A stretch of 64,000 nucleotides of DNA, taken from positions 12,648,001-12,712,000 of the forward strand of contig CM022679.1 in NCBI GenBank assembly GCA_012295275.1, in the 5' to 3' direction. Made by a program: the position numbers and the translations under genes. A model generated the notes under the pieces. The model had not been told where the DNA came from, searched no databases, and worked only from the letters and a program-made list of their open reading frames with translations. Of the stretch, positions 638 to 43,212 are shown in pieces. The stretch comes from Chrysomallon squamiferum (lineage: Eukaryota > Animalia > Mollusca). Position 1 is the stretch's first letter. Each line of letters opens with the position of its first letter.

Positions 638-711
638 GTGTATGCATGTATGCATGTACGTATGTATATATATCCCTCTAGTAACATAAACCTATTGTTT
701 TACTATTTTAG

Positions 712-1588
712 GCGCTTTCAGATACGTCTACGAAAATTACTACGACGATGCTGATTGGTTCATGAAGGCTGACGACGATACTTACGTCATAGTCGAAAAC
801 CTGCGATACTTCCTATCCAGTCAGGACACGAATCTGCCGATCTATTTTGGACACAAATTCAAGAAAATGGTCCCCCAGGGGTACTTCAGCGGAGGTGCTG
901 GATATGTTCTAAGCAGGGAGGCTTTAAAAGTGTTTATAGAGAAAGGATCCAATCAGACGATCTGCAAACAAGATGGCGGCGCTGAAGATGCAGAGATAGG
1001 GAAGTGTATGGCCAAACTGGGCGTCATTGCGGGAAACTCAACTGACACGTTAGGCAGGAGCAGATTCCATTGCTTCGATGCAGAGACTCATCTGTTTGGT
1101 GGATATCCTAAATGGTATTACAACTACGACGCCTCCGGAGCTAAGCAGGTAAATAACCTAGATAATACGATGTGGGATAAATTTGTAACATATCGTTTTG
1201 GGGCTGAAGAGCTGTCACGTGTTAATCAGGTAATCGTTACGTCACTATTTATGTCGATTCAAACATGTCCGAAGATTACCGAGTCTGTGATTTTCTGATA
1301 GGGGTCTTGGGTTTCTTCGTGTATGTACGACAGAAGGCCACAATTATTGTTAAATGAGTATATTAGCCAATGAGTATCGTTGCCAAAGATTAGCCAAAAA
1401 AAAACGATATAGACCTATCTCTGGCGGAGAACCAGCGATATCCAGTCAGATGTTCGTCTGAGCTGTTCTACGCCAGAGAATACTCGGCTACTCAGCTAAT
1501 TTGTCATTTACAAAAATCATTGAAAATATTAAAACTGTTAAAATTAAATATTTATATATTTTCGTTATATATTTAGGTGAATGGATAT

Positions 1589-20754: not shown

Positions 20755-22058
20755 ATAAGAATAATAAATAAAGATCATAATACTATTAGCAGTACTATTA
20801 ATAAATATAACAGTAAGAATAATAAATAAAAATAAAAACAACAACAATAGTAACAATAATGACACCATAATATTAGTGCCAAAATAAAAGTAGTGAATGA
20901 CAGTTTCCTGTAGGCAAAAAACCACCACAAGAAAAAATAAAAGATGACAATAAGAAGAAAAATTAAGTAAAATTGTTTTTAATACTAATTAACTTAACTG
21001 AACCATTTGTATATAAAAACAATATATATATATATATAAAATAAAAAAAAATAACTAATGAACATTTAATTTCATAGTGTGATTATTTATAAGAAAACAA
21101 ATGTTTACTAAACTGATTAAAATAAATACAAAAATTTTATATATATATATATATATCAACTATTTTACCAGGGAAACAAATTCATTACTAAATATTTCTG
21201 ATAAACATTCCCTATGTATTTTTTCTACTGAAAATTGGTTTTTTAAATGAAATAAAATGCTTGCAATATATTGTATTTAATGGACTAAATCTTACAAAAA
21301 CAATTATTGGTCAAATAAAACGTTATTGTATGACAAACTTTTATTATTAAAATTAAAAACTAAAAAATCTTCTGTTAAAGATATATTAGTTGATATAATT
21401 TTTTGTTGTTGTTGTTGTAATAATACCATTTATAAACATGAAAAACATCTAGCTAAAATATGTGTTCATATAAAACACACAGTGAATGATAAAAACTGGA
21501 TATATTAAAAACAAATTAACTGATGTAAAATCTTTTTGCAACATACCATTTATGAGAAAATCAATTCTTCCCAGCTGATTCAGTGTTTCTGTCACTGCCT
21601 GCAGTATCTGATCAGGCTGGAATTAAAAAGATCAATCTTTACTAATGATAAAGTATGACATTTAAAATATTAAGTTCATGAAAATGTATTCATGTCAATG
21701 TGAACACATGCACTCACAGACATGCATGTATATTCATATAAACACACATACAATGAAGTGTGGAAAAATACATGACAGATGTAACTAGATGGCAAATGAG
21801 GTACTCAGTCTTTTCAGGTCATTTCTATATTTCTTTGTTCAAAATATCATCACAATAAATGGGAAAATTCATGAATGAATGTTTAACAACACCCCTGCAT
21901 GAAGGAAAAATTCATTTTCCATGCATTATCATGAAGCTTGTTAATCTTAAGAGGTAGTAAAAATTACGTTAATAAATCAAAAACTCAAAATTTTAAAAAG
22001 TCTACTGATTTCATATTTCTATATCTATGTATTATGTATGTATGTATGGATGTAGATT

Positions 22059-22096
<38 letters not shown>

Positions 22097-22902
22097 TGTG
22101 TGTGTGGCATTTGAATTTTATGAGAAAAAATATATTTTTGTTTTCTAATAATGAGCTATTTATAAAATGAATGAACAAAAGCTATTAGTAAGAGCAATGG
22201 GAATGATTTCAGTTAGGTATGGATAGGAGCAGAATTTTGAACTGAGTTCTAGTAATTACAATATTCCTAAGACTTCATTCTAATCTCTGTAGAGGAAGGA
22301 AAACTGGTAATATTCCATAATTATTATCTATGTAAAAGTCTTTTTTTTTTCTATTTTTTAAATATTTGTGTGTGTGTGTGTGTGTGTGTTATTGTCAACA
22401 AAAGGTATATAAAACACACACACACATCTACTATATTCAATATAAAAACTTGGGATTCAACTTCTACTTGGAGCTAGGAACATGAAGCATATTTTGCCAA
22501 CAGTAATAAAAACTTCTGCAGACTTCTGGTTTTAACTACTCAGCTATCAAAATATTACCAATATGAAGTATAGTTAATGTAAAAAATGAAATGTAAAAAC
22601 TACCTTCCTGACATCCATGCTGATTGCAATACATTTTCGTCCTGTGGTATTGGCAAGTGTGACTGATGCTTTTTGTACTCGCTCAATGCTTCGACTCACA
22701 ATAACTGTGTCACAGCCATGTCTTTGAAAAAAAATTTATCAAAAAGTTAATAATTATATACTTAAAACAGTGGAGTTTTATATTACTGAGTATAAAACTG
22801 TCATAAATTTATATTAAAATATGCAAAATAATTTTTTTTAAAATTCACATTTTATCCAAAAATAGAGATTAAAAAGAAAATAAAGAAAAGCCCAACTCAA
22901 TG

Positions 22903-22936
<34 letters not shown>

Positions 22937-23906
22937 ATACAAATAAAGTTATAATGAAAGGAAAGTAACAAAAATAAAATAAAATCCAGTTTATAAATAA
23001 ATGCAGTTGATATAGTCTTTAAATTCTATTTACCAATCATCACTGAATTCCATTTTGTTTTACATATTGAATATTCCATGCAGCCTCCATCTAGTTACAC
23101 ACTTTCAAAAGCCCAGGTTTATAATGATCATTTGAGATTAAAGTGTTCCATACCTCATAAATATTTCTGCAATAGTAAAGCATATCCCTGAACCACCTCC
23201 TGTTATGAAAGCAACCTTTCCTCTGAAAAAACAATAATAATAATAATGATAATAATTTAAAAATAATAATAATAATAATAATAAAAAATAAAATAAAAAT
23301 TATATATAAAAATAATAATAATAATAAAAAATAATAATAATAATAAAAAAATAAAATAAAAATTATATATAAAAATAATAATAAAACAGAAAAATAAATA
23401 AAGAATTATATATATATTGTACATTATTTAACTGAAATACAAATATAAAATACCTAAATTCTGTTGTGGTTAAATACTTATCTTTAACAATGAATAAGTT
23501 TATTATTTATTTTGAATAATTAATAATAATAATAATTAAAATGTGACTTCATTTAGAATATTAACAATTTATAATTATTAATGCTATTAAATTGACTATT
23601 TGCGAATATAAAATGAAAAAAAAAAAAAAAGAAAAAAAAAAATGAAATAAAAAAAAAAATCTAGTTTATGCATATATTCTAAATAGAAAATTTAAATTTA
23701 AAAAGGCGGAAGAAATAAAGGGTCAATGTTATGAATATAATGAGTAATGTCACAATGTAAAAGTACAAACGAAAGAAACGAATGAACATTTTTAACTAAC
23801 TATACCAGTCTAATTACATAATATACCTAAGAATGTCATCTTTAAAAATCGATTTATAATTTGATATGCAGTTTTCTTTTTGAATAGGTTCTGAAGCACG
23901 GGACAT
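18144..23906 (-). CDS. DECR2: Peroxisomal 2,4-dienoyl-CoA reductase, 299 aa, 8 exons (23906-23827, 23222-23154, 22721-22604, 21616-21547, 20679-20555, 19649-19556, 18802-18698, 18382-18144)
   Basis: SDR motifs [113 protein letters not shown]-terminal PTS1 signal SKL. All introns are GT-AG with matching phases; exons total 900 nt. Confidence 0.96.
19143..19382. mobile_element. 240-bp hAT-type MITE in DECR2 intron 6
   Basis: Imperfect 14-bp TIRs CAATGGCATGCAGA / TCTGCACACCACTG (11/14), flanked by an 8-bp target-site duplication GTCAGTCT (19135-19142) / GTCAGCCT (19383-19390). Confidence 0.75.
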
Positions 23907-24425
23907 CGTTCAAAACACTAGGCAGATAATGGAACTGAACTTAACCACTGCTGCAATCTTGTACTGTCGTTGTTACTGATTTATATTAAAATTAGATCCA
24001 TTTATAATGTGGAAAAAGATTATTCTGTTCTTTTATAAATTAATTTTTTTATTTATTTATTTATTTTATGATTTAGTTATTTAGTTATTTATTCATTTAT
24101 TTAATTGTTTGCTATGCAATATGATTTTAAACGAAATAATATAAATGCATTATTTTCCCTTTTCATATCTTTAGAAATTGCATCGCGAAAGGTTAAAATA
24201 ATAATAACTAATAGTATACATTTTTATCCTAATTGATTTCCTTCCTAGAATTTTCAGAATAATTCACATATTATTTTTAAAAGCAAATATAAAACAATGA
24301 GTCTGTCAAAATCAAAAGAGATATTTACTGATGGGTAAATAAATAAATTCGGTTCCTAAACCGTATTAAAATTAGGAATACAACATGTATCATGTGATTA
24401 GCTCGTGACAGCAAGAAAAATAAAA
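23907..24425. promoter_or_regulatory. Bidirectional promoter between DECR2 and HGSNAT, with an M-box/CLEAR-like TCATGTGA at 24390-24397
   Basis: The divergent start codons are only 519 bp apart. TCATGTGA lies about 30 bp upstream of the HGSNAT ATG, and a YY1-like AAAATGGC overlaps that ATG. Confidence 0.65.
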
Positions 24426-24861
24426 ATGGCAGCTTCATACCGAAACAAGACTTTAATTATGTTTTGTATAAGTAAGATATATTTATTTATAATCACTGTA
24501 TATATAGTCGAATACATACATAAAATATTTTCCAAAAAGTTGATTTATATAACTAATTCGTGCATGTATAATTTATTTTACTGTTATGTCTGTAAGTCAC
24601 TAAGTGTTGACATTTCTAATACCCGAACCGAAAGTAACAAATAATGATATGGAAAACATCGATTTCATCTTACTGAAGATTAACTTAACATTGTTTCTGT
24701 GAAAAATTGTTCCTGCCTAAACTACTGTCTCATGTTTTATCAAAGATGTACTTTCATGTTTATGTAAGGCTGTTTATTATTAAAGGTCCCTTGTAAGTTG
24801 TACTTTAGTACTAACAGCAACAATCATTTATTTATTTATTTATTTATTTGTCGTTGTTGTA

Positions 24862-24909
<48 letters not shown>

Positions 24910-27900
24910 GTTAGTCATATGAATCTAGATATAAATATGTAAGTGAATCATTAAATGAAATGTTTCTCTTTAAATAACTGTATTATCACAAAGCCTATAT
25001 TTTATATTACATTCAGTAAAAAAAAAAAAAAAAAAAACATAAAAACAAACAACAAACAAACAACAAGAAAACAAACTTTTAGAATGTTGCTGAACTTGAT
25101 CACAATAACAAAAGTTTGATTGATTTATTGATTGACATAATTATTTATAAATTACTGTTAATTTTTATTTCATGTATTTATTTTATAGTGATGATTTCAC
25201 ACTGCTCAGAAGAAGTGCAGACAGATAGAGCAGAACTGCCTAAGATCTGTAAAAGTGGCAAAACCCCAGCAATAAAGATCAACACAGGACGACTGAGCAT
25301 CATTAACCATCATAATAAAGACATTGTGTTGTACACACAATCAGAAAACTGTTACAAGGTATAATTATGTATAAATTACTATTCCAGATTAAATAACAGT
25401 GTTTAATTACAGTACATGTAACAACTGTGTGGATTATTTAGTTCATCTTTAATCTGTAAAAAGTAATAGTTGTACATGATAGTAGACCAGAATACTTTCT
25501 TAAATTTAGTTTTCTTAAAACATATTTTTTATATAATTAAATAAAATAAAGCAGTGTTTCTTTGGATGAGATCTAGTGTAAAAGAAAATAATATTTAGAC
25601 TTTTGGTGGTTTATAATAGACAAACATATACATATGCAAAACACAAAAACACCCACATACAGAGAGAGAGAGTATTACATAAAACAGTAATAAAATATAG
25701 ATAATTTCCTTGCGTAATATAATAAGTTGCTTAACAATGTATTGTAGTAAAAGTGAAGATGCTGGTTTGCAAAATTATTTCTGGTTTTAATTCTTCATTT
25801 GTAACTTCAGTGCAACCTCATTGCAACAAATGTGATAAAGGAATTGGAAAACTGCACCTTGCTTGTAGATTCTCGCTGGCCAACACGAATTGATATTCAG
25901 TTTGATAATAATACCAGTTTACAAAATTCAGATAGCTCTTGCAGGTTAGTACATGATTTAAAAAGACACCAATTAAATCCAAAATTTTGTTCTAATAATT
26001 TGATATTTAATCTCTCTAATGATATTTTCTACTTTAATAACACAGCAGAAATGAATCACATAATTGTGTTATTTGGGACTGTTTGACTTGAGTGGTAAAA
26101 GTGAAGTACAGGATTAACTAAAATGAAGGAAGATTTTGAAATTTAATTACCAGTAAATAATGATTGGTTTCCTCCTCCAATCTCCAAATTTTATTATGAC
26201 AACCAATCCTCTGTTGATAGACATGTAATGATTTATGTCAAATGTTAAAAATACTTTAAATTACTATTAAAATTTAAAATATAAACCATGCATGTAAATC
26301 AGTGATTCTCTCATACAGTTTGCTTTCAAACTTTTAAACATTGTTGAGACGCCTCAAAAGCTTTTGTTTATATAATTAGTGAAAACATCTTAATAATATT
26401 ATGAAAATTGTTTTTACTCAGGGCTAACCATTAATGGTATGAGGTCTGTACTTTTGAGACTAGCTGATACTCAGCAATAATGACATACAATGCTTTCTTT
26501 CATTTCTGTTTGTATTTTTCAGTTTTACAAAGTTATTCCTTGAACAAGGACAGTATGTTCTGCATGTTAACTTAGATAATGATGATGCAAATTTGATTTG
26601 TAATGGACCCATTCTTGAAAATGATCCAATGGATAGCAATATTCGTATGTTATCAGTTTAATAATAGTTTAACAGTTTAATAAATAAAAACTAAAATTAA
26701 GACAGCTCTGTTCTTGTGGAAGAGCTTATGTGAATATTTATCAGTTGAATAAAACCTCAGACCTTTTAAGTTAAAATTTCACCTTGTAATTATTAAATGA
26801 ACAATCAGATGAATAAATGTTTATTTATATGATAAAACAGAGCTTTTTGCTCTCAACTGTTCAAATGAAATTAATAAACAACTAAATAAATGTTTTACAT
26901 ACCTGATGACACCTTAGTTAATTTTGATTTCTAACCTGTAGTTTAATAAGCATGTGAGTGAATGTTTATTTATTTCAATTTTAATTTTAACAGTTCAGTT
27001 TGGAATAAATAAATTAATTAATTAATTAATGAAAAAATATGAATTCTTATGTTTAATCTGTAGATTAATGAATAAAAATAAATGTTACCTCCTTATTACA
27101 GACAACTCAGAGCATTTTAATTTTGACACTTCTGCTAAAATGAATTAATATGTCTTTTTTAATTTTTATATTTATTTATTTATTTATTTATTTATTATAA
27201 TGGTATTATCATTTTAAACAAGACACTAACAAGGGTCTTCAGTGGATTTTAATTTTAACAAATTTTGTGTATTTATTACGTGGTATTATTTTACAGTGTC
27301 TTTTATTAGGCTAATTTCAGTAGCAATATAATTATATCTTTAAAAGATTGTTTATGAATTTATTTATTTATGTTTATTTATTTTATTTTTTTTCAGCAAT
27401 CTATGTTGCCTTAGCAATAGGCTTAGTTGTATCACTTATCTGGATTTTGTTGAAATTTTTATACAGGTTTGTATATAGAGGAAATAAAGTTTTCTGAATT
27501 CATATCTTTAAGCTAATATATATATCATTAATGATTAAGCAGTATTATTAACTTAGTATTAGATTAATAAATTTTTAAAATTTAACCTGACATTTTTCTA
27601 AATTAAATTCATAAACTGTTTTGACTAATTTGTTTTGTGGTCATTTGATGTACATGGAAGAAAAATGTCTTGTTCTATTAACAGTAGTCAAGATATTGAT
27701 TTATATTATTACTGTATTTAATAAAGTTGTACTGTATCATTATGTTTATCGAATCATTGTCATCATCATCATCATCATCATCATCTCTGTTATTGTTGTT
27801 ATTATTTATTATTGTTACTATCACTGAAAATGATTCTTGATCTCACATTATTTCAGTTAGCTGTAATAATTTGAAAAAACAAAATCACATTTCTCTTTCA

Positions 27901-30900
27901 GAAAAGGTATATTGCATCGTGTATTTTTCTTCTGGAGTACTGAAGGAATTATGGTGGTAAGGATTAAAAAAATATAATTTTTTGTTGTTGTTAGAGCTAT
28001 TTATTTTTAATGTAACATTTTAGATTTTATGTATATTATTTATTTTAGGTTTTATGTATATTATTTATTTTAAGTTTCATGTATATTATTTATTTTGGTT
28101 ATCCGTGTTATATTTTTTAAAACTTTATTTTTGTTGTTTTCTTTCCTGTTCTGATGTTCATTAATTAGGATTTACCTGATAAAAAATAAATAATTTTACT
28201 TTATAAACTGGCATTACTTACTGTTATTGTTACCTAATGATACAAATATTTACTAAATAATAATCTAGTGTTGTATATAAAATAATTATCCTAAAACCAG
28301 CTTTTTGCTTAGTTGACACAACATAAGATTATAAAGCAGATTATCCTCATTCAAATCTTAACATGAAATTAAGCAAACTCTCACATCTCATAACACTTTA
28401 TTCACATTAATTCACTATTATAAAGTGATGCAGTGTGCAGAAGCATTTGCAATACATTTCAGGAAATATTTTATAATCTTTTTCGATTGTGTAGATTATG
28501 AACAAAGATGTTTGAAAGTATCTAACAATACAAGAATCAAATATATGTACAGATAAAAAAATAATAATAAATGAAATAAAAATAAAGAAAAGAGAGAGAA
28601 AGACAAACCTTTAGAAATCACATAGTGTAATCTAGAATATTATTTCTTCAAAATGTCTTCAAAATGTCTTCAAACTAAAAAAAGTATATTTTTGGTATTT
28701 TAATTTAAAAAAAAAAAAAAATAATAAAAGTAATTATAAAATAAAAAAAAATAAAAAAAAAACCAACCAGAAATAATTATAAAAATACACATAGTTATAC
28801 AGTTATATATATATATATCTATATTGATAGTGTAATCTATGATATTATGTCTTCAAACTTAAAACAAAGGTATATTTTTGGTATTTTAATTAAAAAACAA
28901 AAAAAACAACAACAATAAAAGTAATTATAAAATAAATAAAAAATATTAATAATAATAAAAATACACATAGTTACACACACACACACACACACACATATAC
29001 ATATTGATAAACTTGTGTTAGTTTCTAAAAGGTTGCATTCTCTTCCTCAACTGTCACCAAATTATTTAATCACCAAAGTATCATCAAAATTTTGTTACAA
29101 ATTTTCTTCCATAATTTTCAGAATATTATAAACACGGTACTGTATATTATTCTTTCAAACATATTTTACTCTGCTGTTTAGATTTTAACCAAAAATATTT
29201 TACTTTTCATTACTTTTATATAGTCTTCTTTGCATGTCACATTGATTGTATTGCATGATCTATTTGTATTATATCCAAATATATCATCTTCAGTTAAGAA
29301 GTTGGTCTTAACTGAATTATAAAACTGGTCTCAGACCTGAAGGGTCACAAGGTCAATCCTCCTTACTGGACCAGAATAATATTTGTATTTATACATGCCA
29401 TTTTTTTCCCCATTCCAACCATTATCTCAGAAAAGGTTTTTCAAATACTGTAGAAAATGCAATCCTGTCAGAACATATATATATATATATATAAAAAATT
29501 CACTAATGATAATTTGTAAAAGTAACTATGGAGTGGAAACAGTAGGTTTCTTTGCTCTTATCACAGTATTAACACAATTTATGTGTCTTATCCACCAATG
29601 GTTCTTAACATTGAAATGTTTTTACACTGTTATATAAAACTCAGGTATTAATTTTTTGACGTTGTTAAGTTATGATCCATTTTTTCGGTCTGTTTCATTT
29701 CCTTAAAGGTAACACAACATTAAAGTATAAATATAAAGTATAACACAACATTAAAGTATAAATATAAAGCATTGAGTTTATCACTAAGAGTATGTAAATC
29801 TTATTTTCCTCTAATTAACAAATTCAGAATTTATTTTATTTAACTAATGCATATGTTTAATGACTATTTTAGCACTTGCGCTACACATTGAATAATAACA
29901 GAATGTATGGTACTGCGTAATGTCATCTACCTCTACCATAGCTCAATGTTATTACTCATGTTAGTTGTGATAAGGTGCAGTATAACTCTTTACACATGAC
30001 AGGACACCTGTTACATTTTTAAAATGATTAATTAGGTATTGAGTCATTCCATGTCAAATCACCCCCCCCCCCAAAAAAAAACCCGTTAGCATCTGATTAA
30101 CTAAAACCTGAATGATCAATTCTGGATGCTAGATATCACCATCTCTCTTGATCACTGAGTAAGACATTGTATACCTACATGTATGCATAAAGTTCACATA
30201 AATTTGAGAGAACTAGGTGTTTCTGATGCTTAACCTTCTCACCATATTTGTTTCGAATGCTCACTGTATCTTTCATTCCCGGACACATTCTACTGTTCTC
30301 GTCACTTTCATAAAATTGGACTATTTCCTCCTTCAATTCATTTGAGAGAACTTTCCCTTGTTTCTTATCACAGAGGGATAGAATCCCTTTCTCTTTCTTC
30401 GCAGCATGGCATTTTTTCCACAAGGTAATTCATTGTTTCAAATTCATTTGTTGTCCTTTCAGTGGTAAAGGGTGACAAAGTCAAGATTTGCACATGCTCT
30501 GGGTAGGATTTGGACTTCTTGAATTTCTCTATTAACTCCTCCAACATGTTCCTGAATAATTGAAGATCAGATTTTTCTGATGAGTCAAGGTCACTTTCAA
30601 GAGAATAAAGCAGAATATCATAGAATGTTTCAAGATGTTGTTTTAATGTTACTGTAGCTGATGCTAGTTTTTTCTGTCCTTTCATTCTTTTACTGGAACA
30701 TGCTAGTGAATGGAGTTTAACAGGAGTTTCATCTGAACTCGACAGGATGGAATTCAAATCAAAGTCCTTTTCTGGGGAAACAACAACCGGCAGTTTATCT
30801 GGCAAGTTATCATCAAATTCTCCCATAGTAATACCACCCATACTAAAGCCATCCTCTGCAGGGGTTTGGACCTTTGATTTCTGAAGGTTAATCAGACAGT

Positions 30901-33900
30901 CACAGCACAACTTGTCTCCTGGCACTAGTGTCTTTGGATTTACTAAGCATTTGTAAGTGCCCATGCTAACAATTCCTAAAGATCTAGTGATTGCTTGCAA
31001 TGTTGAAAACTTGATTAAAAGTTCTTGTTCATGATGTGAACAGATACTCTTGATGTCCCTGTGTTTTGATGCCACTTCGAAGAGTGAGGAGTTTGACTTC
31101 CTCCGTTTTCCATACACTTTGCAACAACTCCTTTTTGGTATGATGGTTGATAAAACACATTTTCAGGAGAGTTAAAGCTGCAGTTAGCCCTTGGAAGAAA
31201 TAAGTATTGGCCTGCACCTTTAATTCAATAGAACAAAGTCAGTGCTTTCCTAAATATCAAATCAGATCCTGAAACCCTTTCAATAAAGTTAAGCAGGTCA
31301 TAAACTGGCTGCAGAGTACATGTGTTATTGCCAAAGGCCCACAAGTCTTGGGCATTTAGGTCCAACTTTTCAGGAATAAATCACAGCTTATCAAGGTGAA
31401 GGTAGACCTTGTTCATACTCTGTGCCGAAGACTGGGTGTACAAATACATTATGCAGTAGATCACTTGATGAAGTCTGATTTCAGACTGGGTTGTACTATA
31501 GTTGACTGAAACCTTGTTCAAAACCAATGGCAAGGCCACATGACATGATAAAATGACTTAATAGGTTTTATGAAGAAAACATAATGCTTACATATCAACA
31601 TCTGACATTGTGTCCAACTTGAAAGCTTCAGATTGTCAAAGAAATGCAGATGAAGAAACTTCTTTGTCTTAAACTTCTAAAAGCCATGTGCTCAATGGGG
31701 ATTGCACCAGGGGATCTAAAGGAGTTCCTGACCTGCCTGAAGCATCACTTCCTGTTAACCCTTTGAGCCTGATTGTGTAGAACATGTCATGCCATTTGGC
31801 ATCTTTTCATATCATTCAGGCATTCCTTCAGACATGTCAGGTGGGTTTTAACTCCAAAGATGAGTTTTTGGTCTCTGAGAAGTGTATACATGTAAAAAAT
31901 GTACATTGTAATGCATTTTGTCAATCATCCATACAGGTATGCATTTTTTAAATCTATATTATGGCTAAACAAAAAATATTACACCCAGGAAACTTTTATA
32001 TGTTTTAGTTAACATGTGGGAGATTAAATTTCAATAAAGGTCATCTCAAGGTCACATGATCCACACAGTCAATTTCAAGGTCATAACAAAGGTCAAAAGG
32101 TCAGTGACCCCAAATTTTCCAAACTGAACAATAATGGCAGATTTGGAATCCTTGTCATATTGCCCTTTCAACAATACCAATTTTATGAAGATTGGCCCAG
32201 TAGTTCCTGAGATATGAGGGCTAAAATGTTGCTGGTCATACCCATTTTCGCCCAAAATCTCAAAATTTGGTGGGCCTTATCTCCCACACCACTGATCCAA
32301 TTGGGCTAATATTTCAGATTTGGTGCTGTGGGATCCCAGTCAACAAGTATACCAAGTTTTATAAAAATCGGAGACAGTCGGGTTTAACTCATTGGGTGAT
32401 TTGACACGGAATGACCCTATTCATTTCCAAAGTAAGGACAACACATATCAAGTATTGTCTGAGATCACTCTTGTTTGCTAGGTATGAAGGACAATAAAGC
32501 ATGAACTATAATATGTACTTAGACTGTCCAATCTAACCAAACTGTATACAAGAAGTTTGGTTGTTAATTCTGAGTTATGTATTTGACACTAGGTAATTAC
32601 TGTAAACAGATTAAATCCTATTCTGTCTGTATCAGTGTATTCCTGTCCCAGCCAGTGCTGTGCAGTGGTTTGTCAAAGGTCATGGTGTACGCTTTTACTA
32701 GATGAATAAGAGTTGCAGTGGGATTTTTTTCTCATAATTTCTGTGATTCTGACCTCTGTGTTTGATGCTATATAACCATACACTGTTATTCATTTTCTGT
32801 TACTGTTCAAAAAGAAAAAAAAAGAAAAAAATGAAGCATTTTTGACTTTAAGATTTATCTGTGATTTTGTCTACGTACTAATTTGTAATTATTTTTTTTT
32901 TATAAATCTTATTTACATATATATATATAGAGAGAGAGAAAGTTCTGTTGAAAAGATAAACAAGTAATGATAAAAATACATCCGACCTTGAAATTTTGAA
33001 TATTACAACTTATTTGATGAGTTTTGTCTCCAATTTTTTTTTTTTTTTTTTTTTTTTTATCCAGTGTCATCTTATATTGGAGACTATTATAGAAAATATC
33101 TTCAAATTATTTAGTAACATTGTGATGGTAAAAATATTTTACTCTATCTTAACTGTTTTAATATTTTAGTTATGATGGATGCTTCTACTCAGAGTGTAGC
33201 TTTTTCTAGCAGAAACAACTAAAAGAATATTAATCAAACTTTATTAATGTGTATGTTTTTGGACTGGGGAGGCATTTCTTTTCAAGATTAATAACTAAAA
33301 CAAAATCTTTTTTAACCTGTTTATTATGCAATACTAACAAACATTACATGCGAAATGGAAAAGATTGAAGTTTATTTTATGGTGTACTTTTTTTTTAAAT
33401 TTTGTTAGTGATAATGTCTGAAGTAATTTTTTGGTAGTCAAACTTAGACAGAGTTTTAGTGAACTGTTAAATTCAAGTCTTGTTGAACATCATCAGTTAA
33501 TAATTTAATTTCAGCTTGTATTTAAAGGAGGCCATGTTCAGGTAAGTTATTAAAATCTGTGTTTGTGGTGAAGAGATAATATATATATGTAAGATTTTGT
33601 TTTTAATGTTATTTTGTTATTGTTTTATTATTGTTTCATTTTAAGAATAAATTATAATAACAGGGTCTTTCATTTTATATATATATAGATGAGTTTTAAA
33701 ATGTACATATATAATTATATAAGATCTTGTTTGTTTAATTTATTTTGTCATTGCTTTATTGTTGTTATTGTTATTTCTTTTAAGAACAAGAGTACTGATG
33801 CAAAAGTTATAATACTAGGGTATTTCAGTTCTTAACATCTTTTTTCTTTTTTGACTTTTGAAATGTATTATTATTTTCATTAGTCCTTGTGAATAAACTG

Positions 33901-33985
33901 TTACAAGTAACAGAAGCATCCTTACACATCTTCAGTATTAGAACACATGTATAAATTATAACCCTGTTTTATATAATTATATACA

Positions 33986-34047
<62 letters not shown>

Positions 34048-37000
34048 CATTATGATAATATAATACTTCTGATGTCATTATTTTCTATTGAAATAAAATT
34101 TAATAACATTGACTGAAATCTGAAATATTTTCAGCATTCAGTAGTTTGAATAATCTAGTAGACTTCCTTTTTTATAACTGAACTCATTTCATCTTGAAAT
34201 ATCAACTGCATCAAGAATGTCTCATCTGTTCTGAAACCTTGAATATGCCTCTGATGAAGATGCTTCATAAGAGATAATGATTAATTCTGTATAATTCTTT
34301 TTCTTTTCTTACAAATAAATTTTATATCATCTTATGCTATGCTTTTTTTTTATATTCATTACTGAATATATTAAGAACAAAATAATTGTATTTCAAATAC
34401 TGTTCCACATCATTAGCATTTCTACTGTTTTTACTGACTTTAAATTATCTTGTTAGTATTTATTTATTAAATTATCATTATTATTATTATCATTATTATT
34501 TACTTTTGTCAAGAGACTGTTACTTACATATTATTATCACTATTTTTAGTGTTGTATAGAAAACAGGTTTTTTCTTCTTGTTTAATGTTATTCTTCTCTT
34601 TGTATACAGGATCTTGGCACCCCCACAAATATCAATGCAAGTGAGGTGCCTGTTGGTGAATCACCTTCTAGGAAGGAAAGATTGCGATCTTTAGATACTT
34701 TCAGAGGGTGAGCATCTCAGTATTTTATTACATGTTGTATATCATTATTATAATAGATATATTCACATTTACCATATGACTATTAGGTTTGTAATGATAT
34801 TGTTATAACAAATGATATATAAGCATATCCTGTTGTTTATTAGGTTTATAAGATATCATTATGACAAATGATATATTAATGTTTCCACTGATTATTAGGT
34901 TTGTAATGATATCATTGTAACAAATGATATATTAATTTATCCCGTTGATTATTAGGTTTGTAATGATATAGTTTGAGCACACAAATTTCCAGATACTGGG
35001 TGAGTGTAATATAGTAACAAGTTAAGACAAAAAATATGTTTTAACAAGGACACAGTCCGTAGAAAGTTAGTAATAACCACTAATGTATTCATTACTGGTA
35101 TCACCATAAAATGGCCAAAAATTTAACTATATGGCAAAAATAGATGATTCCCACATATTTTACTGGACTGGTGTGTGGACTAAAGAACAGTCAAAATCTT
35201 GGGCCACTGTAATAGTTATTAAAGATTCTCAAGATGTTAATTTGATCAAAAATTTGGATTAAGAAATTCCATTATTAACATTATTATGATGTCATAAAAT
35301 ATACTAAAAACTTCAAATCTTTAGTTTCGAGTTTACAATTTTATCCAGAGAGGAGCAGTTTGACAAAGACAAATACATTTGTTTATTTTAGGATTTCCAT
35401 CTTGGTAATGATATTTGTAAATTTACGAGGAGGGGAATATTGGTTTTTTAAACACTCCAAATGGAATGGTCTTCATCTGGCAGATCTAGTATTTCCATGG
35501 TGAGTTGCTACTAGCAACAAGCATGATGCTGTTAGAGATGGCTTCAGCATGGATGTGGCTAGATTATTGCTATATTTTGTGCATGACCATAGACTATGCA
35601 TGTTGCTGTATTGAAAACTGTTGGGCTTTCACTAATACATCTTCTTCTGCATGTTTTTCTTACAGCTAGAACTAATTTATTTTTCCTTCCTTTCTGTTTT
35701 TCTGTATTATTTTTGGCAATTTATTTATTTAGTAATTTTTAATTGTCACATTTTATAGCAGCTACATGTGTGCAGTAATATCAAAATGTGCATCATTGTT
35801 ATCTTATTTTCAGCTGTCTGCCTTTGCCTTTTTATACACATACACATGTTTTTTGTTTTTTAACTTACCATAGAACATACATGATATATATTGAAGCAAC
35901 ATGGTATGGTGTAAAGTTAAAACAAATATACATTCATTGTACATTAAATAATTAAATAAAATACTACTATAAATGAAAGAAGAGTTTATTAAATTACTGG
36001 ATTTTTTTCAAAGCAGATTTTTTTAGAGTAATTCTGTCAGGTCTGAAAGATGTGACAGGCCATTAGTAATGAAAAATTATCTGGTGTACATTTGTGTTTC
36101 ATTGACAGATTTGTTTCAGTTTGTAGTAGATTATTTGCATGTCCATTTGTTAGTTCATTTCTAAAATTTATGTTTCAGTCTCAAGATACTGGTTGAAAAT
36201 TCATTAACCAAAATCCAAAATATCTTTTAGAAAAACTAAAACAATTTTAATTCCTAATAGCATAAAAAGCATTATTTGTATGATTAATTATATTAAAAAA
36301 TATTTAGATTAATTTGTGTGTATCATTATAGATACATAAACACACTGGCATCAAACCATTTATCATGCAAAATTACGACCATAGGTGACCAGGACTTCCA
36401 AAACTCTGGTTTTCTGAACCAAGGCTTTAATAAATACTTAAAGTATAAAATAAACAACAAAAAGTAAAGAACAAAACAGTTTATAACAGATACAAATTAA
36501 CAAACTTCTAAAGCCAGTTTTCTGGTTATTCTGGTTTTCGTGTTAAGCCAAATAAATGGTTCAAAACCTCCATTATCCTTTAGATTGTTTAAAATCTATT
36601 CCCAAACCACAAAATTTTGGATAATGAATAATAAACCTGTATCTTAATTTACATCTTTGTTTCTTTGTTTGCCAATCTGTCCATACTTCTGTTTATCTGT
36701 TGTTTGATTAATATGCATGCTTCCTTCTCTCTGCATAGACTGAGTTTAGTGGTTATGAATTTTGTTAACTATGGTGGTGGTCGTTATTGGTTCTTTGCTC
36801 ACTCTAAATGGAATGGAATCACTGTGGCTGACCTTGTGTTTCCCTGGTATGTAGACATTGACACTTCTAACTAAAACTGTTTGTAGAGTATTTCTTTTAA
36901 ATTATGAAATTTTTTGTTTATTTATTATGTCTTAAAAGTAATAAACTGGTACAGGGTATCTGAAAAATAATGAAATAAAATACATTTTAAAATTTTAGAA

Positions 37001-38821
37001 ATTAAAATGTAAAATATTATCGTTTATTATGTCATAAGTTTATTTATTACATTTAGAATGTGTATAACAAAGAGTGGATTTGTATTATTTGTTTCTTCTT
37101 CATAATAACTGGTAGATTAGAATTATGTAATACAATAAAAAGTGTTATTATTATCTTAATAATTATTATTTTTATATTATAGCTTGTAATAAAAAATTAA
37201 GTAGTCTTATTTGTGACTATTCTTAGAATATCTTGTGAAATAAAAAGTATTATTGTTATTTATTACTTTTTAACTCTAAATATACTTCTTGTTAAAATAC
37301 ATAATCATAATATTATTATTATTTTTTTTTTAACTGTAATTATTATGACAGTATATGTAATAAAACACAAAGTAGTATTATTTATTAATGAATAATTGGT
37401 GGAGTATCTTTTCTAAAATAAGTATTGTTATTTATGTGTTAACTGTAATTGTTTTTGAGTATATCAAATCAGTAACATTTTTAAAGATATTTTATTTGTT
37501 ACATCATTAGATTTAACACAGGTGATCTACATGTTTCAAATAATAACTATAAATCAGGAATTACATATTTGTAATTTAAATGATACTGATTTTATAATCA
37601 GGTTTGTCTTCATAATGGGAACATCCATGGTCTTCAGCTTCAACTCACAACTAAAGAGAAACATGACCAAAAAGAGAATGTTTTTAAAAATCTTAAAACG
37701 TTCAATCATCCTCTTTCTCCTTGGTCTTATGCTGAACTCTGGTGGAGGTATGTTCAAATGACAAAAAAAATTCAGTTGATTTTGGATTCAATTTTCTTTC
37801 ATTTCTTTTCTTTGTTTTTGTTTTAAAATATGGCTACTGTGTATTGTTGCTTTAAAGATATATATTGTTGCTTTGAATAACAAAAACGCAGCTAAATAAA
37901 AGCATCCACAAATAACAACCACTAGATAACAATAAAAATAATAATAATAACGAAAATCAGTTATAGGAAAGTTTTATACAGCTATAATCTAATTTTATGT
38001 TTTTGTATTAATAAATTTTTCCTTATTTTTGTATTTTATTTCAGGAGTTGAATTAACAAAATTACGAATACCTGGAGTGCTACAGCGTTTTGGTGTGACG
38101 TACCTGATAGTTGCAACAATCCACTTATTCTTTGCACGGACAGCAGATGAACATCAGGTAAATCTTCCATTGTTTTTATTAAAACCTTCTTTACAGTCCC
38201 ATTTGTGTGTGTGTGTATGTATGTGTAATTGTATTACTGATCACTGATTTTCAACATTGTTTTGTTTTGTTTTTAATTACAGTTTTAGTGTTGGTAGTAT
38301 TGCTAAGGAAATGTTTTTCAGTGATCATGGTTATTGTTAGTAATTGCATTATTTTGTATCTATTTTTATTTTAATATAATATAACATAATATAATATAAT
38401 ATATTTTTTTAAATCTTTTAAATTTTGTTTTCAGTATCGTTGGTGGTCTCCAGTGAGAGATATACTGGACTACTGGTTGGAATGGGTTATTCACATTATT
38501 CTGCTGATTGTTTGGTTTGGGTTGACGTTTGGTCTCGAAGTACCTGACTGTCCCAAGTACTGAAATATTCACTTCAGAAATTAATTCACACATACTTCAT
38601 ACAAAAGCAAAACTACAGCAGTTATTTCATTTGATGGTGTTAAGAATTTTCAACTTGTGAACTTATATAGACCCTCATACAAAGATTCTTTTATTAAGAA
38701 ACACGTCATATAAAGAAACACGTCATTTAATTACTGTATATTTATTCAGCTGTCTATCCGTCAATCCACCTATCAAGACAAACACATGAAGCACAAACAC
38801 AAAAACATACACATGTATATG

Positions 38822-38855
<34 letters not shown>

Positions 38856-39219
38856 CACACAGATAGACAAATATGCACTCACACATAATTTAATTAGTGT
38901 TATGAATTTATACTCAGAGGCTATCTTGGTCCAGGAGGCTTAGCTGATGAAGGAAAATATCCTAACTGTACTGGTGGAGCAGCTGGTTACATTGACCGTC
39001 TGGTCTTTGGTATTGAACACATTTACCAACACAGCACTCCCCAGGTGAGGCCACTGCGTATACACGTACACAATACTGCCTCAAATAAAATAAAATAATT
39101 TAAAAAATAGACAATAACAAATAATGTTTTTTTTGACATGTAATGTTTTTTTTATATATATATAACACTATGGTGAGAGTAAAGTAAAACAAAAAAAAAT
39201 ATCTTTGTATTTCTAAACC

Positions 39220-39279
<60 letters not shown>

Positions 39280-40450
39280 ATATTAAAAAGAAAAGATGAT
39301 AACTATAACAATACTACTATTATTTATCAAAGATTATTATTATTAGTTATCTATCATTATTCAGAATTGTCAGACTCCATGACATTAAAGAAACAATTGT
39401 CTTTATATTTCTACAGATTGAGATAGAGTAGAATATTAAAGAAATAAACTGGTAGTAATATGATTAATACAGTATCATTTCCAACTAATATAAATATTGT
39501 CTTTATTTTTACTTTCTTATTTATTTATTTTTTTATTTTTTATTTTTTTTTTTTTTTATTTAATTTGATTATATTTTAAAAAAAATTGTTATTTGATTTT
39601 ATTTAACTTTTATTTATTTTCATTTAATTTTATTATTACTGGGTTTTTTTTAATCAGTTTATCAGATTAATTTCTGCTGGCTGTGCAAAAAATAATATAT
39701 GAAGCATCAGTATTTAATATTGTTTTTGTAGGAAATTTATCACAACATTTTGCCAAATGAGCCTGAAGGTCTGTTAGGAACATTGACCTCCTGCTTTATG
39801 TGTTTCCTTGGTGTTCAGGTCTGTGTTTAACTTAATTTAAAAATTAACTATCATTTATTTTAAAAGATACGTTTGTTTAATTAAAGATTAAGTGATTTTC
39901 ATCCTGAACAGTTATGTCCCCTTACAACATTATGAGAACACAGGGCAAGGGTAAAAGATATATATATATATATATATATGTAATATATAAATATTTATAA
40001 CTACATTACATAACTAACCATATTTCTGTAATAGTAGAACATTTAATCTATGGGTTCCACCATAAAAATGATTTGAAAAGGGATGGTGAAAGTTATTTTT
40101 TTAAGAACTGCTGATTTTGTTATCTGAAATCCTAAGCTATGACACATTTAAATTACTTTGATAGATACAGGTTAATAGTTAAATGTCCTTTATCAGAAAA
40201 TCCAAGTAACCTGAATTTTTAATTTTGTTTGGTACAAATATTGTGTTATAATTTAAATAATTTTTATCCTTTTATTTCCAGGCTGGTAAAATTTTATTTG
40301 TGTACAAAGATTGGGTTCTCCGAGTTAGACGTTTTATTGCCTGGGCTGTTGTCCTGGTATGTTTTGTGTTTATCTTACATGAATGATGAATTATGAAGTT
40401 AAAACAAAATTGTATTAATTACTGAATTAGCAGGATAGTTATATAACATA

Positions 40451-40486
<36 letters not shown>

Positions 40487-41158
40487 AAGTACTGTCACAT
40501 TTATGAGTAATATTAAAACCAGTGCATTTCGTGGATTTTTAAATCTTGTGTCCATGCATAATGTTGTTGTTATTTTTTAATTATTGTCCTTGTTATTGTT
40601 ATTACTAGTTGCTACAACTACTGTTTCTGCTGTTACCACTATTACTAATATGCAGGTCCATCTTAACAGCATTATAGGCCATCTAGGCAAAGCAAAACAC
40701 TAGTATCTTTTTGTACACATGAAAAATGTATTTACAGCAATCCACAGCATGCATGGCCTGCCTGCACATTCCTCTACCAGACTGCCCATGCCTTAAGACT
40801 ATCAAATGTACTACTACTACTGCTGCTGCTGCTACTACTACCACCACTACTGTTGCTTACATACCATGGCTTTTGTTACATCAGTTAGAACATATAATAA
40901 TAATTCAAGAATGACACATTCATTGCTGTTCAATCTCTCTGAGACATGCATGTTATTATTTACATACATTTTTAATCTTCAAACAGGGAATTATTGGTGC
41001 AATATTGACAAAAGGAAGTAAGAATGAAGGTTGGATTCCAGCATGCAAGAATTTGTGGTGAGTTCTGAATTAATGTATCAGCAAAAAAATATTTTTCCTA
41101 CTTCCATTCATCCATCCATCCATCCATCCATCTATCCACCCAGACATACATACATACA

Positions 41159-41189
<31 letters not shown>

Positions 41190-42399
41190 TTGGCCTTACA
41201 CAAAAAAAAAAAACACAGACAATGAAATGTGTTTTAAGAGCATACACATTGAAAAGAAATACCTGTCATCACATATAAAAAGGAATGTATTACAACTGTT
41301 TCAGGTCAATGTCATTTGTTATCATCTTGTCATCGTTTTGCCTTCATTCTTCTGATGATGTGTTATCTTCTGGTAGATGTGTGGAAAATCTGGAGTGGAG
41401 CCCCTTTTTATTATCCAGGTAAATGTTTAACATTTTATTTTATTTTATTTCTTCTTCTATAGAACATTTCTTAATTTGTTTTGATGCTTGGTTGGGACAT
41501 GCTTATGTATAGATGCATGGAGGCTTATGGTTATGGTCATAGTAACACTAACAACACAATCATTTAAAATCTGACTGCAAAAATAATAATATTCAGTTGG
41601 TACTAAATAAATGGGAAGCATTTAAAGATGAAAAAATATATAATGATAGTGACTGAAATTGTATATATTATAGACATTAATTAACGTTATAATATGTAAT
41701 GAAAGTGACTGAAATTGTATATATTATAGACATTAATTAACGTTATAACTATGTCAGAAAATGAATAAGTAAGCTCTACATCTTAAAAATTATTTTATTT
41801 CATATCGCCTTTCTTTCTAAATTTTCTAAATTTTCTTATTTTATCTGTTTATTAGCCTATGAATTTATATATTGTCTTCGTAAATTTTAAATCTAAATTT
41901 TTCACACATGCTTTATAAATTTTTATTTGCATGAATTTAGCTCCTAACTCTTATTTGTGTTGTCTCTGTAAATTTTGTTACTTCTAGTTGCATGAATTTA
42001 ACTGGAAGCTTTGCATGAATTTAACTACAAATTCTTGTGTATATTTTTACTTCACGTATTGTGTTCTTTTTTCTCTCTGCATGCTCTCATCTTTTTTTTG
42101 TTTTACTTGTCACACTGTTCACTTTCTGCCAGGCATGAACTCTATCTTTATGTACGTGTGTCACGAAGTGTTTAGTTCCTTCTTTCCTGTGTCGGTGTAT
42201 GTGAAAGATGAACACAGTTTAAAGCTGCTGATGGCTGTCTGGGGTCCGGTGTTCTGGTGTCTCATCACATACAGAATGCACCTCATGAAAATGTACATCA
42301 GTGTCTAACCACATGCTTCCTTCTTCTCTGTCAGCTGGTGTGTATTTCTCTTCTCTAATACTTCTGTTTGAACCTTCTAGCTGCTTTCTAGAATATATT

Positions 42400-42441
<42 letters not shown>

Positions 42442-42763
42442 CTACATACATAAATACATTACATACATTATATACAGACAATAAACAAAATAAATATGTA
42501 ATACATTCATTCAGTACACACAATAAATATTTGCCTACATATATACATACATACATGGATATATTACATATGTCACATACTCAATACATGCTCCCATGCA
42601 ATATCTACATAGATATATGTATGTATGTATGTTGTGGTATTATTTTTGGTAATGGTTTATATTGGTATAACATATTTATATAAATTTATGCATAAAACAA
42701 ATAACATATTTAGTTTTACTGTTATTCTGAATATAATTGGTATATTTACTTTAATGAATTAAT

Positions 42764-42818
<55 letters not shown>

Positions 42819-43212
42819 CACATACATATACATAAATACGTAGATTACATTATAATATTCTGAAAAGATTCCATTTTTATGCAATATGATTAAATTATAT
42901 ATTAAAAAAAAAAATCATGTTAAAATTAGACAGTGATATTCCAAAGAAAAAATACTGAATAATTTTTGCTTGTTTTTTTTGTCTTATTCATTCATAAAGC
43001 TTTCAGTGTTTATTACTTATTTGTTTTTCTTTACAGGTATGAATCCTATAGTGCTTTACGTTGGACATGAACTTCTTATTAAGACTTTCCCTTTTTACAT
43101 CCATGTAAATAAAACACACACAGAGCAGCTGGTTCTTAGCATCTGGGGAACATTTCTCTGGTTCTTGGTGGCTTTGTATATGGATTACAAATATATGTAC
43201 GTCACTGTTTGA
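24426..43212 (+). CDS. HGSNAT: Heparan-alpha-glucosaminide N-acetyltransferase, about 610 aa. Exons: 24426-24471, 25189-25358, 25811-25944, 26523-26644, 27397-27466, 27902-27956, 34610-34707, [8a 35392-35499 or 8b 36739-36846], 37602-37747, 38045-38157, 38435-38556, 38918-39044, 39732-39818, 40282-40356, 40987-41057, 41305-41418, [17a 42133-42308 or 17b 43037-43212]
   Basis: Motifs [113 protein letters not shown]. All junctions are GT-AG with consistent phases, apart from one extra T in exon 16 (41336-41339). Confidence 0.96.
28620..28975. repeat. Imperfect tandem duplication of about 200 bp in HGSNAT intron 6
   Basis: ATAGTGTAATCTA...TCTTCAAACT...GTATATTTTTGGTATTTTAATT...TAAAAGTAATTATAAAATAAA...AAAATACACATAGTTA occurs twice, starting near 28622 and 28827. 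Confidence 0.75.
30041..32417 (-). mobile_element. Sola2-type DNA transposon, internally deleted and non-autonomous (2377 bp), in HGSNAT intron 6
   Basis: 24-bp TIRs GAGTCATTCCATGTCAAATCACCC (30041-30064) and GGGTGATTTGACACGGAATGACCC (32394-32417), 22/24 identical. 4-bp TSD TATT on both sides (30037-30040, 32418-32421). GRG...CYC termini with a 4-bp TSD fit Sola2. Contains a broken transposase-like frame. Confidence 0.85.
30175..31160 (-). pseudogene. Frameshifted N-terminal part of the Sola2-like transposase; the catalytic region is deleted
   Basis: Overlapping ORFs 30368-31117 and 30175-30423 give ICSHHE, KLCCDC, QILTLSP and [23 protein letters not shown]...[13 protein letters not shown]. 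The last block is recalled from this transposase family. The frame breaks off about 110 bp before the TIR. Confidence 0.75.
32615..32790 (+). mobile_element. Decayed tRNA-derived SINE, same family as 12185-12385
   Basis: TTCCTGTCCCAGCCAGTGCTGTGCAGTGGTTTGTCAAAGGTCATGGTGT...AAGAGT...GTGGGATTT...TGACC...GTTTGATGCTATATAACC follows the recalled motif order of a gastropod SINE core. Confidence 0.45.
33515..33541 (+). CDS. HGSNAT: Candidate 27-nt cassette microexon of HGSNAT (LVFKGGHVQ)
   Basis: tttaatttcag|CTTGTATTTAAAGGAGGCCATGTTCAG|gtaagt. Consensus acceptor, perfect donor, multiple of 3, stop-free in phase 0, which is the phase of intron 6. Confidence 0.5.
34770..34970. repeat. Minisatellite of about 56-57 bp, roughly 3.5 copies, in HGSNAT intron 7
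   Basis: TATTAGGTTT recurs at 34781, 34838, 34893 and 34950, each followed by GATAT and, in the first three copies, CAAATGATATAT. Confidence 0.85.
35392..35499 (+). CDS. HGSNAT: HGSNAT exon 8a (alternative, divergent copy of the catalytic-His exon): [36 protein letters not shown]
   Basis: ttttag| acceptor and TG|gtgagt donor. 108 nt, phase 2-2, stop-free, homologous to exon 8b. Confidence 0.9.
35521..35676 (+). promoter_or_regulatory. Intronic splicing-regulatory cluster downstream of exon 8a: five (T)GCATG Rbfox motifs and two ACTAAT STAR/QKI-type motifs
   Basis: GCATG at 35521 and 35547; TGCATG at 35580, 35597 and 35648; ACTAAT at 35631 and 35671. Confidence 0.7.
36739..36846 (+). CDS. 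HGSNAT: HGSNAT exon 8b (canonical-like catalytic-His exon): [36 protein letters not shown]
   Basis: ctgcatag| acceptor and TG|gtatgt donor. 108 nt, phase 2-2. TGCATG at 36714-36719, next to its polypyrimidine tract. Confidence 0.92.
40653..40808. mobile_element. Possible decayed hAT-type MITE in HGSNAT intron 14
   Basis: Starts CAGGTCCATCTTAA and ends ...GCCTTAAGACT, resembling CAGGGCCGTCTTAA...TTAAGACGGCCCTG ends. The right end is degenerate and no TSD was found. Confidence 0.3.
41649..41748. repeat. Direct duplication of about 44 bp in HGSNAT intron 16
   Basis: GTGACTGAAATTGTATATATTATAGACATTAATTAACGTTATAA occurs twice, about 56 bp apart. Confidence 0.85.
41928..42083 (+). promoter_or_regulatory. 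Rbfox TGCATG cluster upstream of the exon 17a acceptor
   Basis: TGCATG at 41928, 41989, 42012 and 42078. The first three share the longer context TTGCATGAATTTA. Confidence 0.65.
42133..42308 (+). CDS. HGSNAT: HGSNAT alternative terminal exon 17a: [58 protein letters not shown]
   Basis: ctgccag| acceptor, phase 1, 176 nt to TAA. It has its own AATAAA signals at 42480, 42489 and 42522, upstream of exon 17b. Confidence 0.9.
43037..43212 (+). CDS. HGSNAT: HGSNAT alternative terminal exon 17b: [58 protein letters not shown]
   Basis: ctttacag| acceptor, phase 1, 176 nt to TGA. Aligns to 17a without gaps. Confidence 0.9.

Follow-up and report, generated by a model that had tools for sequence, protein, structure and literature searches.

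Does a single lysosomal enzyme gene exchange two separate parts of its active site by alternative splicing, and are the two exchanges made together? The question is raised by a 64,000-nucleotide (nt) stretch of Chrysomallon squamiferum DNA (contig CM022679.1, positions 12,648,001 to 12,712,000; "the window"), the + strand of which carries a complete HGSNAT gene at 24426-43212. HGSNAT is the Sanfilippo C enzyme and has been treated as a single-purpose, single-form catalyst. An initial annotation of the window proposed that exons 8 and 17 of this gene are each present in two versions (8a/8b and 17a/17b), which are exchanged as a matched pair under the control of Rbfox. The explanation preferred here, to which we give about even chances, is that two old tandem exon duplications exist in mollusc HGSNAT, and that an Rbfox-steered choice leans to 8a+17b or to 8b+17a, giving variants of the active site.

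Alternative exons of the HGSNAT gene

The whole-protein identity to the HGSNAT isoforms of Gigantopelta aegis was 65-67% in the protein search, Haliotis being next with about 61%. When the window was searched by tblastn with the 17 exon peptides plus 8a and 17b, second copies were found for exons 8 and 17 only, which bears out the claim that exactly two exons are duplicated. Exons 8a and 8b are 108 nt each, have AG/GT ends and equal phase, and share 69/108 nucleotides and 24/35 amino acids. The last exons 17a and 17b are 176 nt each and are identical in 95/176 nucleotides and 21/58 codon positions; both end in their own stop and are followed by poly(A) hexamers (AATAAA at 42480, 42489 and 42522 for 17a, at 43448 and 43493 for 17b). 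The four copies are thus intact, as had been annotated. Since 8a and 8b also lay in tandem on one 3154-nt contig of a DNA-like run from an independent study, the pair is no assembly artefact.

Exon 16 (41305-41418) contains an extra T in the T run at 41336-41339 which, with the true AG acceptor, causes a 1-nt frameshift relative to all homologues; it was absent from the initial annotation. An open frame of this exon starting from a non-AG site was rejected, since the true acceptor gives the frameshift. A 964-nt contig of RNA run X1 has the length expected if exon 16 measures 113 nt, without the extra T (a hand count, from length only), and the extra base is likely an assembly error.

Of five runs containing the stretch, four were compared with positions 34560-39070, namely the RNA runs X1, X2 and X3 of one study and the DNA-like run; these data are contigs, so the depths are rough, and the coverage spans exons 7-12. 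The joint of exon 7 with 8b was present in all three RNA runs, at depths of 57.8 (X1), 23.3 (X2) and 28.1 (X3), and the joint of exon 7 with 8a in two of them, at depths of 0, 14.8 and 34.4, respectively. Hence both exon-8 acceptors are used, with differences between the samples, and the junctions to 8a, on which the earlier proposal had made itself depend, exist in X2 and X3. The 8b-exon 9 joint was found in 3/3 RNA runs, and an 8a-8b joint was not among the joints listed for these runs. The introns flanking 8a (34708-36738) were covered by RNA contigs, the introns 8b-9, 10-11 and 11-12 being nearly bare, which suggests that the alternative region is spliced slowly or held back. The 964-nt X1 contig starts at 8b and, judged by its length (hand count), ends one base past exon 16, at the point where 17a (GC) diverges from 17b or the intron (GT). 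Splicing of 17a is thereby implied for X1, the sample showing 8b and no 8a joint; a retained intron produced the same kind of contig break in X3, so that the use of 17b in X1 does not follow. Taken together, 8a/8b and 17a/17b are almost certainly real alternative exons.

Two of the RNA observations speak against our explanation and would fit another one, in which one copy, here 8a, is a decaying or dead-end exon with incidental motifs. No 8a-exon 9 joint was among the joints listed (the constitutive 9-10 joint was also missing in 2/3 runs), and the X2 contig carrying 8a continues into the intron. Exon 8a is, however, intact and 91% identical to the Gigantopelta exon, the six translated exonic variants listed are all synonymous, including the two that fall in 8a, and 8a is the main annotated form across molluscs. 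Moreover, the 8b-exon 9 contig of X3 breaks off within exon 9, after 30 nt, the intron ahead of the break is not covered, and the depth of exon 9 is about 97 compared with about 40 for this contig (hand count), as expected if 8a also joins exon 9. A dead-end 8a is therefore hardly credible.

In order to follow the two pairs in other animals, protein searches were combined with look-ups for 30 retrieved clusters, and 18 mollusc species were tallied by their annotated isoforms; a swap missing among the retrieved isoforms does not equal its loss. Both swaps were found in 12/18 species (two Haliotis, Patella, Mercenaria, Ruditapes, two Magallana, three Mytilus, Argopecten and Pecten), so the duplications recur in gastropods and bivalves, the check which the initial annotation had proposed, and both last-exon ends were annotated or assembled in 15/18. 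The 17a copies of gastropods and bivalves, together with the 17a of the window, formed one clade of 11 rows in two trees (100/97 and 99/99), and the 17b of the window was sister to the end of Gigantopelta isoform X4 (100/99). The single clade places the last-exon duplication before the split of gastropods and bivalves. This split dates back over 500 million years. The ends of a chiton and of annelids fell near 17a, weakly (84/85). For exon 8 the tree was largely unresolved, with 5/53 branches starred; an acidic 8b clade of 8 rows (96/85) was recovered, and the 8b of the window stood beside a third Haliotis variant on an unstarred branch. This third variant (P0262, P0268, P0273, P0275) combines an 8b-like start with a basic loop. 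As judged from these comparisons of sequence, both duplications are old.

Only one gene of each species showed the swaps; separate HGSNAT paralogues also occur in molluscs, including a clam-specific group (P0244, P0253, P0202, P0064, P0167, P0189-P0219). Outside the molluscs, two exon-8 variants with one end, one of the loops being more basic, were noticed in Tachypleus (P0227/P0350) and in the spiders Argiope (P0140/P0132) and Caerostris (P0119). None of the mollusc proteins retrieved carries both exon-8 copies, as one spider gene model does, and the search of protein representatives gave no further duplicated-exon case beyond that model. The search with 17b alone led to one beetle protein. 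Among 39 genomic exon-8 loci from a metagenome scan none had a tandem 8a/8b pair, and only one, a clam-like locus (L001), resembled the mollusc 8a of the duplicated gene. The amphioxus and sea-urchin isoforms retrieved showed no duplicate of exon 8 or of the last exon.

Active-site residues in the exchanged segments

Homology to HGSNAT covers the luminal domain and the 11-helix membrane domain, in sequence and, for the fold, through an orthologue. The model of Patella isoform X1 (predicted local distance difference test score 78), used for this comparison in place of the window's own protein, matched the human HGSNAT structures with a Foldseek E value of about 1e-42, TM-scores of 0.79 and 0.88-0.92, and 38% identity. 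As an HGSNAT, the product of the window gene would acetylate terminal glucosamine in the lysosome in an acetyl-CoA-dependent manner.

In the human enzyme the dyad H297-D307 and N286 are catalytic, M282, F310 and F313 of transmembrane helices (TM) 2 and 3 form the pore gate with I608 and Y611 of TM10b, and a beta-glucosaminide analogue is bound, according to the accessible part of one structural study (PMC11199644). The available sections of another describe a catalytic core of TM2-5 and TM10, with TM10b parallel to TM2, and luminal salt bridges including H269, D279, H586 and E587, which are H297, D307, H614 and E615 in the long numbering (PMC11357348). Exon 8 aligned to human residues 277-311 and thereby contributes M282, N286, H297, D307 and F310 (long numbering) to the core, and the last exon aligned to 605-663 and contributes I608, Y611, H614 and E615. 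Both duplicated exons thus build the same pore, in agreement with the initial annotation, which had supposed that the two segments line one catalytic channel; the excerpts of the human structure papers place them in one core (PMC11199644, PMC11357348).

The catalytic N286, H297 and D307 of exon 8 and H614 of the last exon are kept across 8a, 8b, 17a and 17b. The GHE motif, which had been assigned to the terminal-exon segment in general, is read in 17b, and 17a of the window reads CHE. In a table of 12 species, from which the 17a of Gigantopelta was omitted because its model is out of frame (it reads GHD), GHE was kept by 17b in 12/12 and by 17a in 0/12; in 17a, G613 was replaced in 12/12 species and E615 in 6/12. 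The loop N286-A306 carries a net charge of +2 or +3 in 8a-type copies and of 0 to -2 in 8b-type copies; this held for 11/12 mollusc species pairs, the types being assigned by sequence and not by position. The idea that 8b+17a is the more vertebrate-like pair did not survive this comparison: 17a and 17b score nearly alike against the human protein (27.2 and 25.9 bits), and since 17b and not 17a keeps GHE, 17a was rejected as the vertebrate-like copy.

These differences could have little to do with the reaction. The chemistry may be the same in all forms, the variants differing in stability, dimer contact or lysosomal sorting, or serving the regulation of the enzyme amount. The conservation of N286, H297, D307 and H614 in all four exons is what this would predict; the last exon contributes TM11 and the cytosolic tail as well, and the RNA-covered introns around 8a/8b are a sign of slow or held-back splicing. 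The steady differences between the a and b copies at the luminal mouth, in the loop charge (11/12 pairs), at G613 (12/12) and in the loss of E615 (6/12 17a), argue otherwise, and we regard identical chemistry as improbable.

On the preferred explanation, the canonical GHE at the luminal mouth is kept in 17b, 17a changes G613 and frequently also E615, and the catalytic His is surrounded by a basic 8a loop or a neutral to acidic 8b loop in most molluscs. A basic loop would favour strongly sulfated glycosaminoglycan ends, and a neutral or acidic one less anionic or cationic glucosamine ends. We therefore put forward only tentatively that the isoforms may differ in kinetics or substrate, with a predicted preference in sugar substrate or pH. 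A bolder version, which we consider unlikely, is that in molluscs, for more than 500 million years, one splicing factor has exchanged both walls of the HGSNAT catalytic pore jointly, making of a heparan-sulfate recycling enzyme a second lysosomal N-acetyltransferase for another amino sugar, e.g. deacetylated chitin ends, with a parallel in the basic/acidic exon-8 pair of horseshoe crabs and spiders.

GCATG motifs and the pairing of the two choices

The motif scan recovered the placement given in the initial annotation, five motifs after 8a, one before 8b and four before 17a. The GCATG copies after 8a lie at +22, +48, +82, +99 and +150, three of them being TGCATG; the GCATG of the copies before 17a lie at -204, -143, -120 and -54, and the first bases of 17a are themselves GCATG. 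On both strands of the window, clusters of at least three GCATG occur only after 8a and before 17a. None of 40,000 Markov simulations (orders 2 and 3) attained these clusters, Poisson estimates for one interval each were 3e-7 and 4e-6, and the other 59 permutations of the pentamer reached at most two copies in any of 40 exon flanks. Three of the four motifs before 17a are copies of one 16-nt repeat, thus not independent of each other, and each stands three bases before TTAAC. The AG-free zones before 8b (154 nt, the longest in the gene) and before 17a (123 nt) are the two longest among 20 acceptors. Since 8b and 17a are the two exons predicted to be repressed, this was counted in favour of our explanation.

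(U)GCAUG is accordingly enriched in the window on the 3' side of the exon whose promotion is predicted and on the 5' side of those expected to be repressed. The layout agrees with the published rules: the available portion of a Fox-1 review gives the position rule for Fox-1/Fox-2 with layout precedents for promotion and repression, describes the repression of calcitonin exon 4 through an exonic motif and a motif at -34, the latter blocking SF1, and places the exon pairs of FGFR2 and egl-15 under the control of the Fox-1 family (PMC2777236). An Rbfox-type protein probably controls the exon choice. Rbfox bound after 8a would promote 8a, in the pyrimidine tract of 8b it would block 8b, and beside the branch points of 17a it would block 17a, so that splicing would proceed to 17b by the logic of calcitonin/CGRP (calcitonin gene-related peptide). 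When Rbfox is lacking, 8b would be used, and 17a would be spliced and polyadenylated first. Applied to the motif layout, the Rbfox rule predicts 8a+17b with the factor and 8b+17a without it; 8a+17b would be the main product in many tissues, 8b+17a would be made where little of the factor is present, and the separation would be leaky.

The pairing was assessed on unnamed assembled transcripts spanning both sites. All 13 were matched, 12 being 8a+17b (10 oyster-like and 2 clam-like) and one 8b+17a, and mixed forms were absent; these transcripts come from the clusters opened only, are not independent and reflect the dominant form of the sample. A positive co-variation of 8a with 17b and of 8b with 17a is slightly more likely than not. 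Because the link would be a shared regulator, the pairing is likely a bias and not a lock, and mixed forms are likely made. The coordinated swap of the initial annotation therefore stands in part: the spanning transcripts were matched, and mixed forms are annotated and some lineages show one swap only. The picture of 8a+17b as a special form of neurons or muscle found no support, since it was the commonest among the assembled oyster and clam transcripts (12/13).

Several further points count against the preferred explanation. The 13-transcript tally reached a one-sided Fisher p of 0.077, is drawn largely from a single oyster group and does not amount to molecular phasing. Among the RefSeq models, the combination 8a+17a appears for 14 species, and Patella vulgata and Magallana gigas have all four forms annotated. 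Four oyster 17a proteins (12 contigs) begin directly behind exon 8, a possible sign that both exon-8 types go with 17a. Among the retrieved isoforms, Babylonia, Littorina and Biomphalaria have the exon-8 swap with a 17b-type end only; in Gigantopelta, Saccostrea echinata and the chiton Liolophura it is the last exon alone that is swapped. In the species of the window, the sign of 17a use, the length of one X1 contig, is indirect. The conservation of the motifs rests on a single other locus, the 8a-type exon of L001 with TGCATG at +16 after the donor (GCATG occurred within 200 nt downstream in 3/39 genomic exon-8 loci), and the literature search found no data on Rbfox expression in molluscs. 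An approximately unbiased (AU) test did not reject a window-specific clade of 17a and 17b (p = 0.129, 58 columns), and the window's species is the exception in loop charge, with +2 for both 8a and 8b and no acidic loop in the latter.

Some of these points suit two independent switches, in which the two pairs exist and are conserved, yet each is selected on its own, so that four enzymes result and no combination is preferred. The four annotated forms of Patella vulgata and Magallana gigas, the single swaps in 6/18 species and the break of the 17a-bearing oyster contigs after exon 8 would all follow. On the other side, the same motif stands at both sites with a polarity predicting 8a+17b, and mixed forms were 0/13 among the spanning transcripts. 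Annotated combinations of the RefSeq type are generally unphased and built from short reads. Independent switches are possible, although rather unlikely. The opposite extreme would be a strictly matched exchange of touching halves, in which no combination other than 8a+17b and 8b+17a could fold or function, the two being different enzymes. It would account for the matching of 13/13 transcripts, and TM2 and TM10b run side by side in parallel within the catalytic core according to the accessible text of the structural work (PMC11357348). Both exon-8 types are combined with a 17b-type end in Babylonia, Littorina and Biomphalaria, however, and Haliotis has three exon-8 variants for two ends. The obligatory matched pair of the initial annotation is thus doubtful, and we assign strict matching a small probability.

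Further elements near the alternative exons were noted. The optional 5-amino-acid (aa) insert of Gigantopelta isoforms falls at the place of a candidate 15-nt microexon in intron 6, and optional inserts of 5-6 aa (and of 36-46 aa) in the cytosolic loop after TM1 occur in Gigantopelta, Haliotis, clams and scallops. The candidate was skipped in the exon 6-7 contigs of 3/3 RNA runs, where its inclusion was not seen. A 27-nt candidate exon at 33515-33541, skipped in RNA and without a homologue, was rejected. About 165 nt after the 8a donor (35630-35720) lie a branch-point-like site, a pyrimidine tract, CAG and then another long pyrimidine tract, after which no exon was recognized. A search for docking/selector pairing gave no clear case; the sole candidate is a 32-nt inverted repeat of 84% (36183-36214 / 36614-36645).

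Table 1. Features of the HGSNAT locus, in window coordinates
Feature	Position	Strand	Basis or remark
HGSNAT exons 1-6: signal peptide, luminal domain, TM1	24426..27956	+	AG/GT exon model, in-frame translation
Candidate 15-nt microexon (5 aa), intron 6	29122..29136	+	two TGCATG about 96 and 117 nt downstream
Exon 7, shared upstream exon	34610..34707	+	joined to 8a and to 8b in RNA contigs
Exon 8a: TM2, luminal loop with catalytic Asn/His/Asp, TM3 start	35392..35499	+	human 277-311, 47.5 bits
Five GCATG 3' of 8a, predicted Rbfox enhancer	35521..35653	+	motif scan
TGCATG in 8b pyrimidine tract, -25 before 8b	36714..36719	+	motif scan
Exon 8b, homologous alternative of 8a	36739..36846	+	human 278-311, 53.5 bits
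Constitutive exons 9-16	37602..41418	+	joints 9-10 (1 run), 10-11 and 11-12 (3 runs)
Four TGCATG upstream of 17a	41928..42083	+	three in 16-nt repeat with branch-point-like TTAAC
Last exon 17a: TM10b (CHE), TM11, stop	42133..42308	+	human 605-660, 27.2 bits; mollusc 17a clade
Last exon 17b: TM10b (GHE), TM11, stop	43037..43212	+	human 605-655, 25.9 bits

Elsewhere in the window, short-chain dehydrogenase-like exons at about 21570-23940 (- strand; glycine-rich motif recognized by eye) lie about 0.5 kb from HGSNAT in head-to-head orientation. Inside intron 6, a 264-codon open frame (31162-30371, -) in a GC-richer block is possibly a transposon remnant. An open frame at 690-1295 (+) resembles what we take to be an exon of a core-1 beta-1,3-galactosyltransferase, and two TGCATG lie just upstream of it, at 643 and 651. 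A 476-codon open frame (52449-51022, -) encodes mucin-like tandem repeats of 10 residues.

Comparison with known systems

The initial annotation knew of no description of such a swap, and none of the double exon swap in HGSNAT was found in the open-access literature, where genome-wide catalogues of exon duplication could list it in a supplement. The natural active-site variants of gastropods and bivalves show which residues near the catalytic His and the luminal GHE tolerate change, and they hint that invertebrate lysosomes have another acceptor substrate or a different pH setting. The gene is also a compact test case for the coordination of an internal exon pair with a last-exon pair by one factor.

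Human HGSNAT (TMEM76; PDB 8VKJ, 8VLG, 8JKV, 8TU9) shares its fold with the Patella model, and its catalytic residues are the same in all four mollusc exons. The two human isoforms described differ in the start codon only, as far as the accessible text goes (PMC11357348), while the mollusc forms swap exons.

The closest likeness for the last exons is exon 4 of calcitonin/CGRP, in the available part of the review a proximal last exon with an upstream UGCAUG near the branch point and an exonic motif (PMC2777236); 17a is preceded by four motifs and opens with a fifth. The ends of calcitonin/CGRP are, however, unrelated peptides and the binding there has been demonstrated, whereas 17a and 17b are homologous copies of a core helix of a membrane enzyme, with binding predicted. 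For the internal pair, FGFR2 IIIb/IIIc and C. elegans egl-15 5A/5B are comparable, being in the same portion of the review tandem alternative exons which set ligand specificity and of which UGCAUG represses one and favours the other (PMC2777236). In HGSNAT the swap hits the active site of an enzyme instead, and a second duplicated exon lies 5 kb away with the same motif.

The substitution of homologous exons likewise tunes one protein in unc-32 and insect myosin heavy chain, with their several sets of tandem duplicated exons, and in the alternative oxidase of oysters, where one exon is duplicated. None of these is a lysosomal glycan enzyme, and an internal pair and a last-exon pair meeting in one pore was not found among such genes, so far as the accessible parts of the sources list them. 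The types of splicing are thus known, and the isoform sequences already stand in automated annotations; as far as the open-access literature could be searched, neither their pairing on a single enzyme pore nor its age has been described before.

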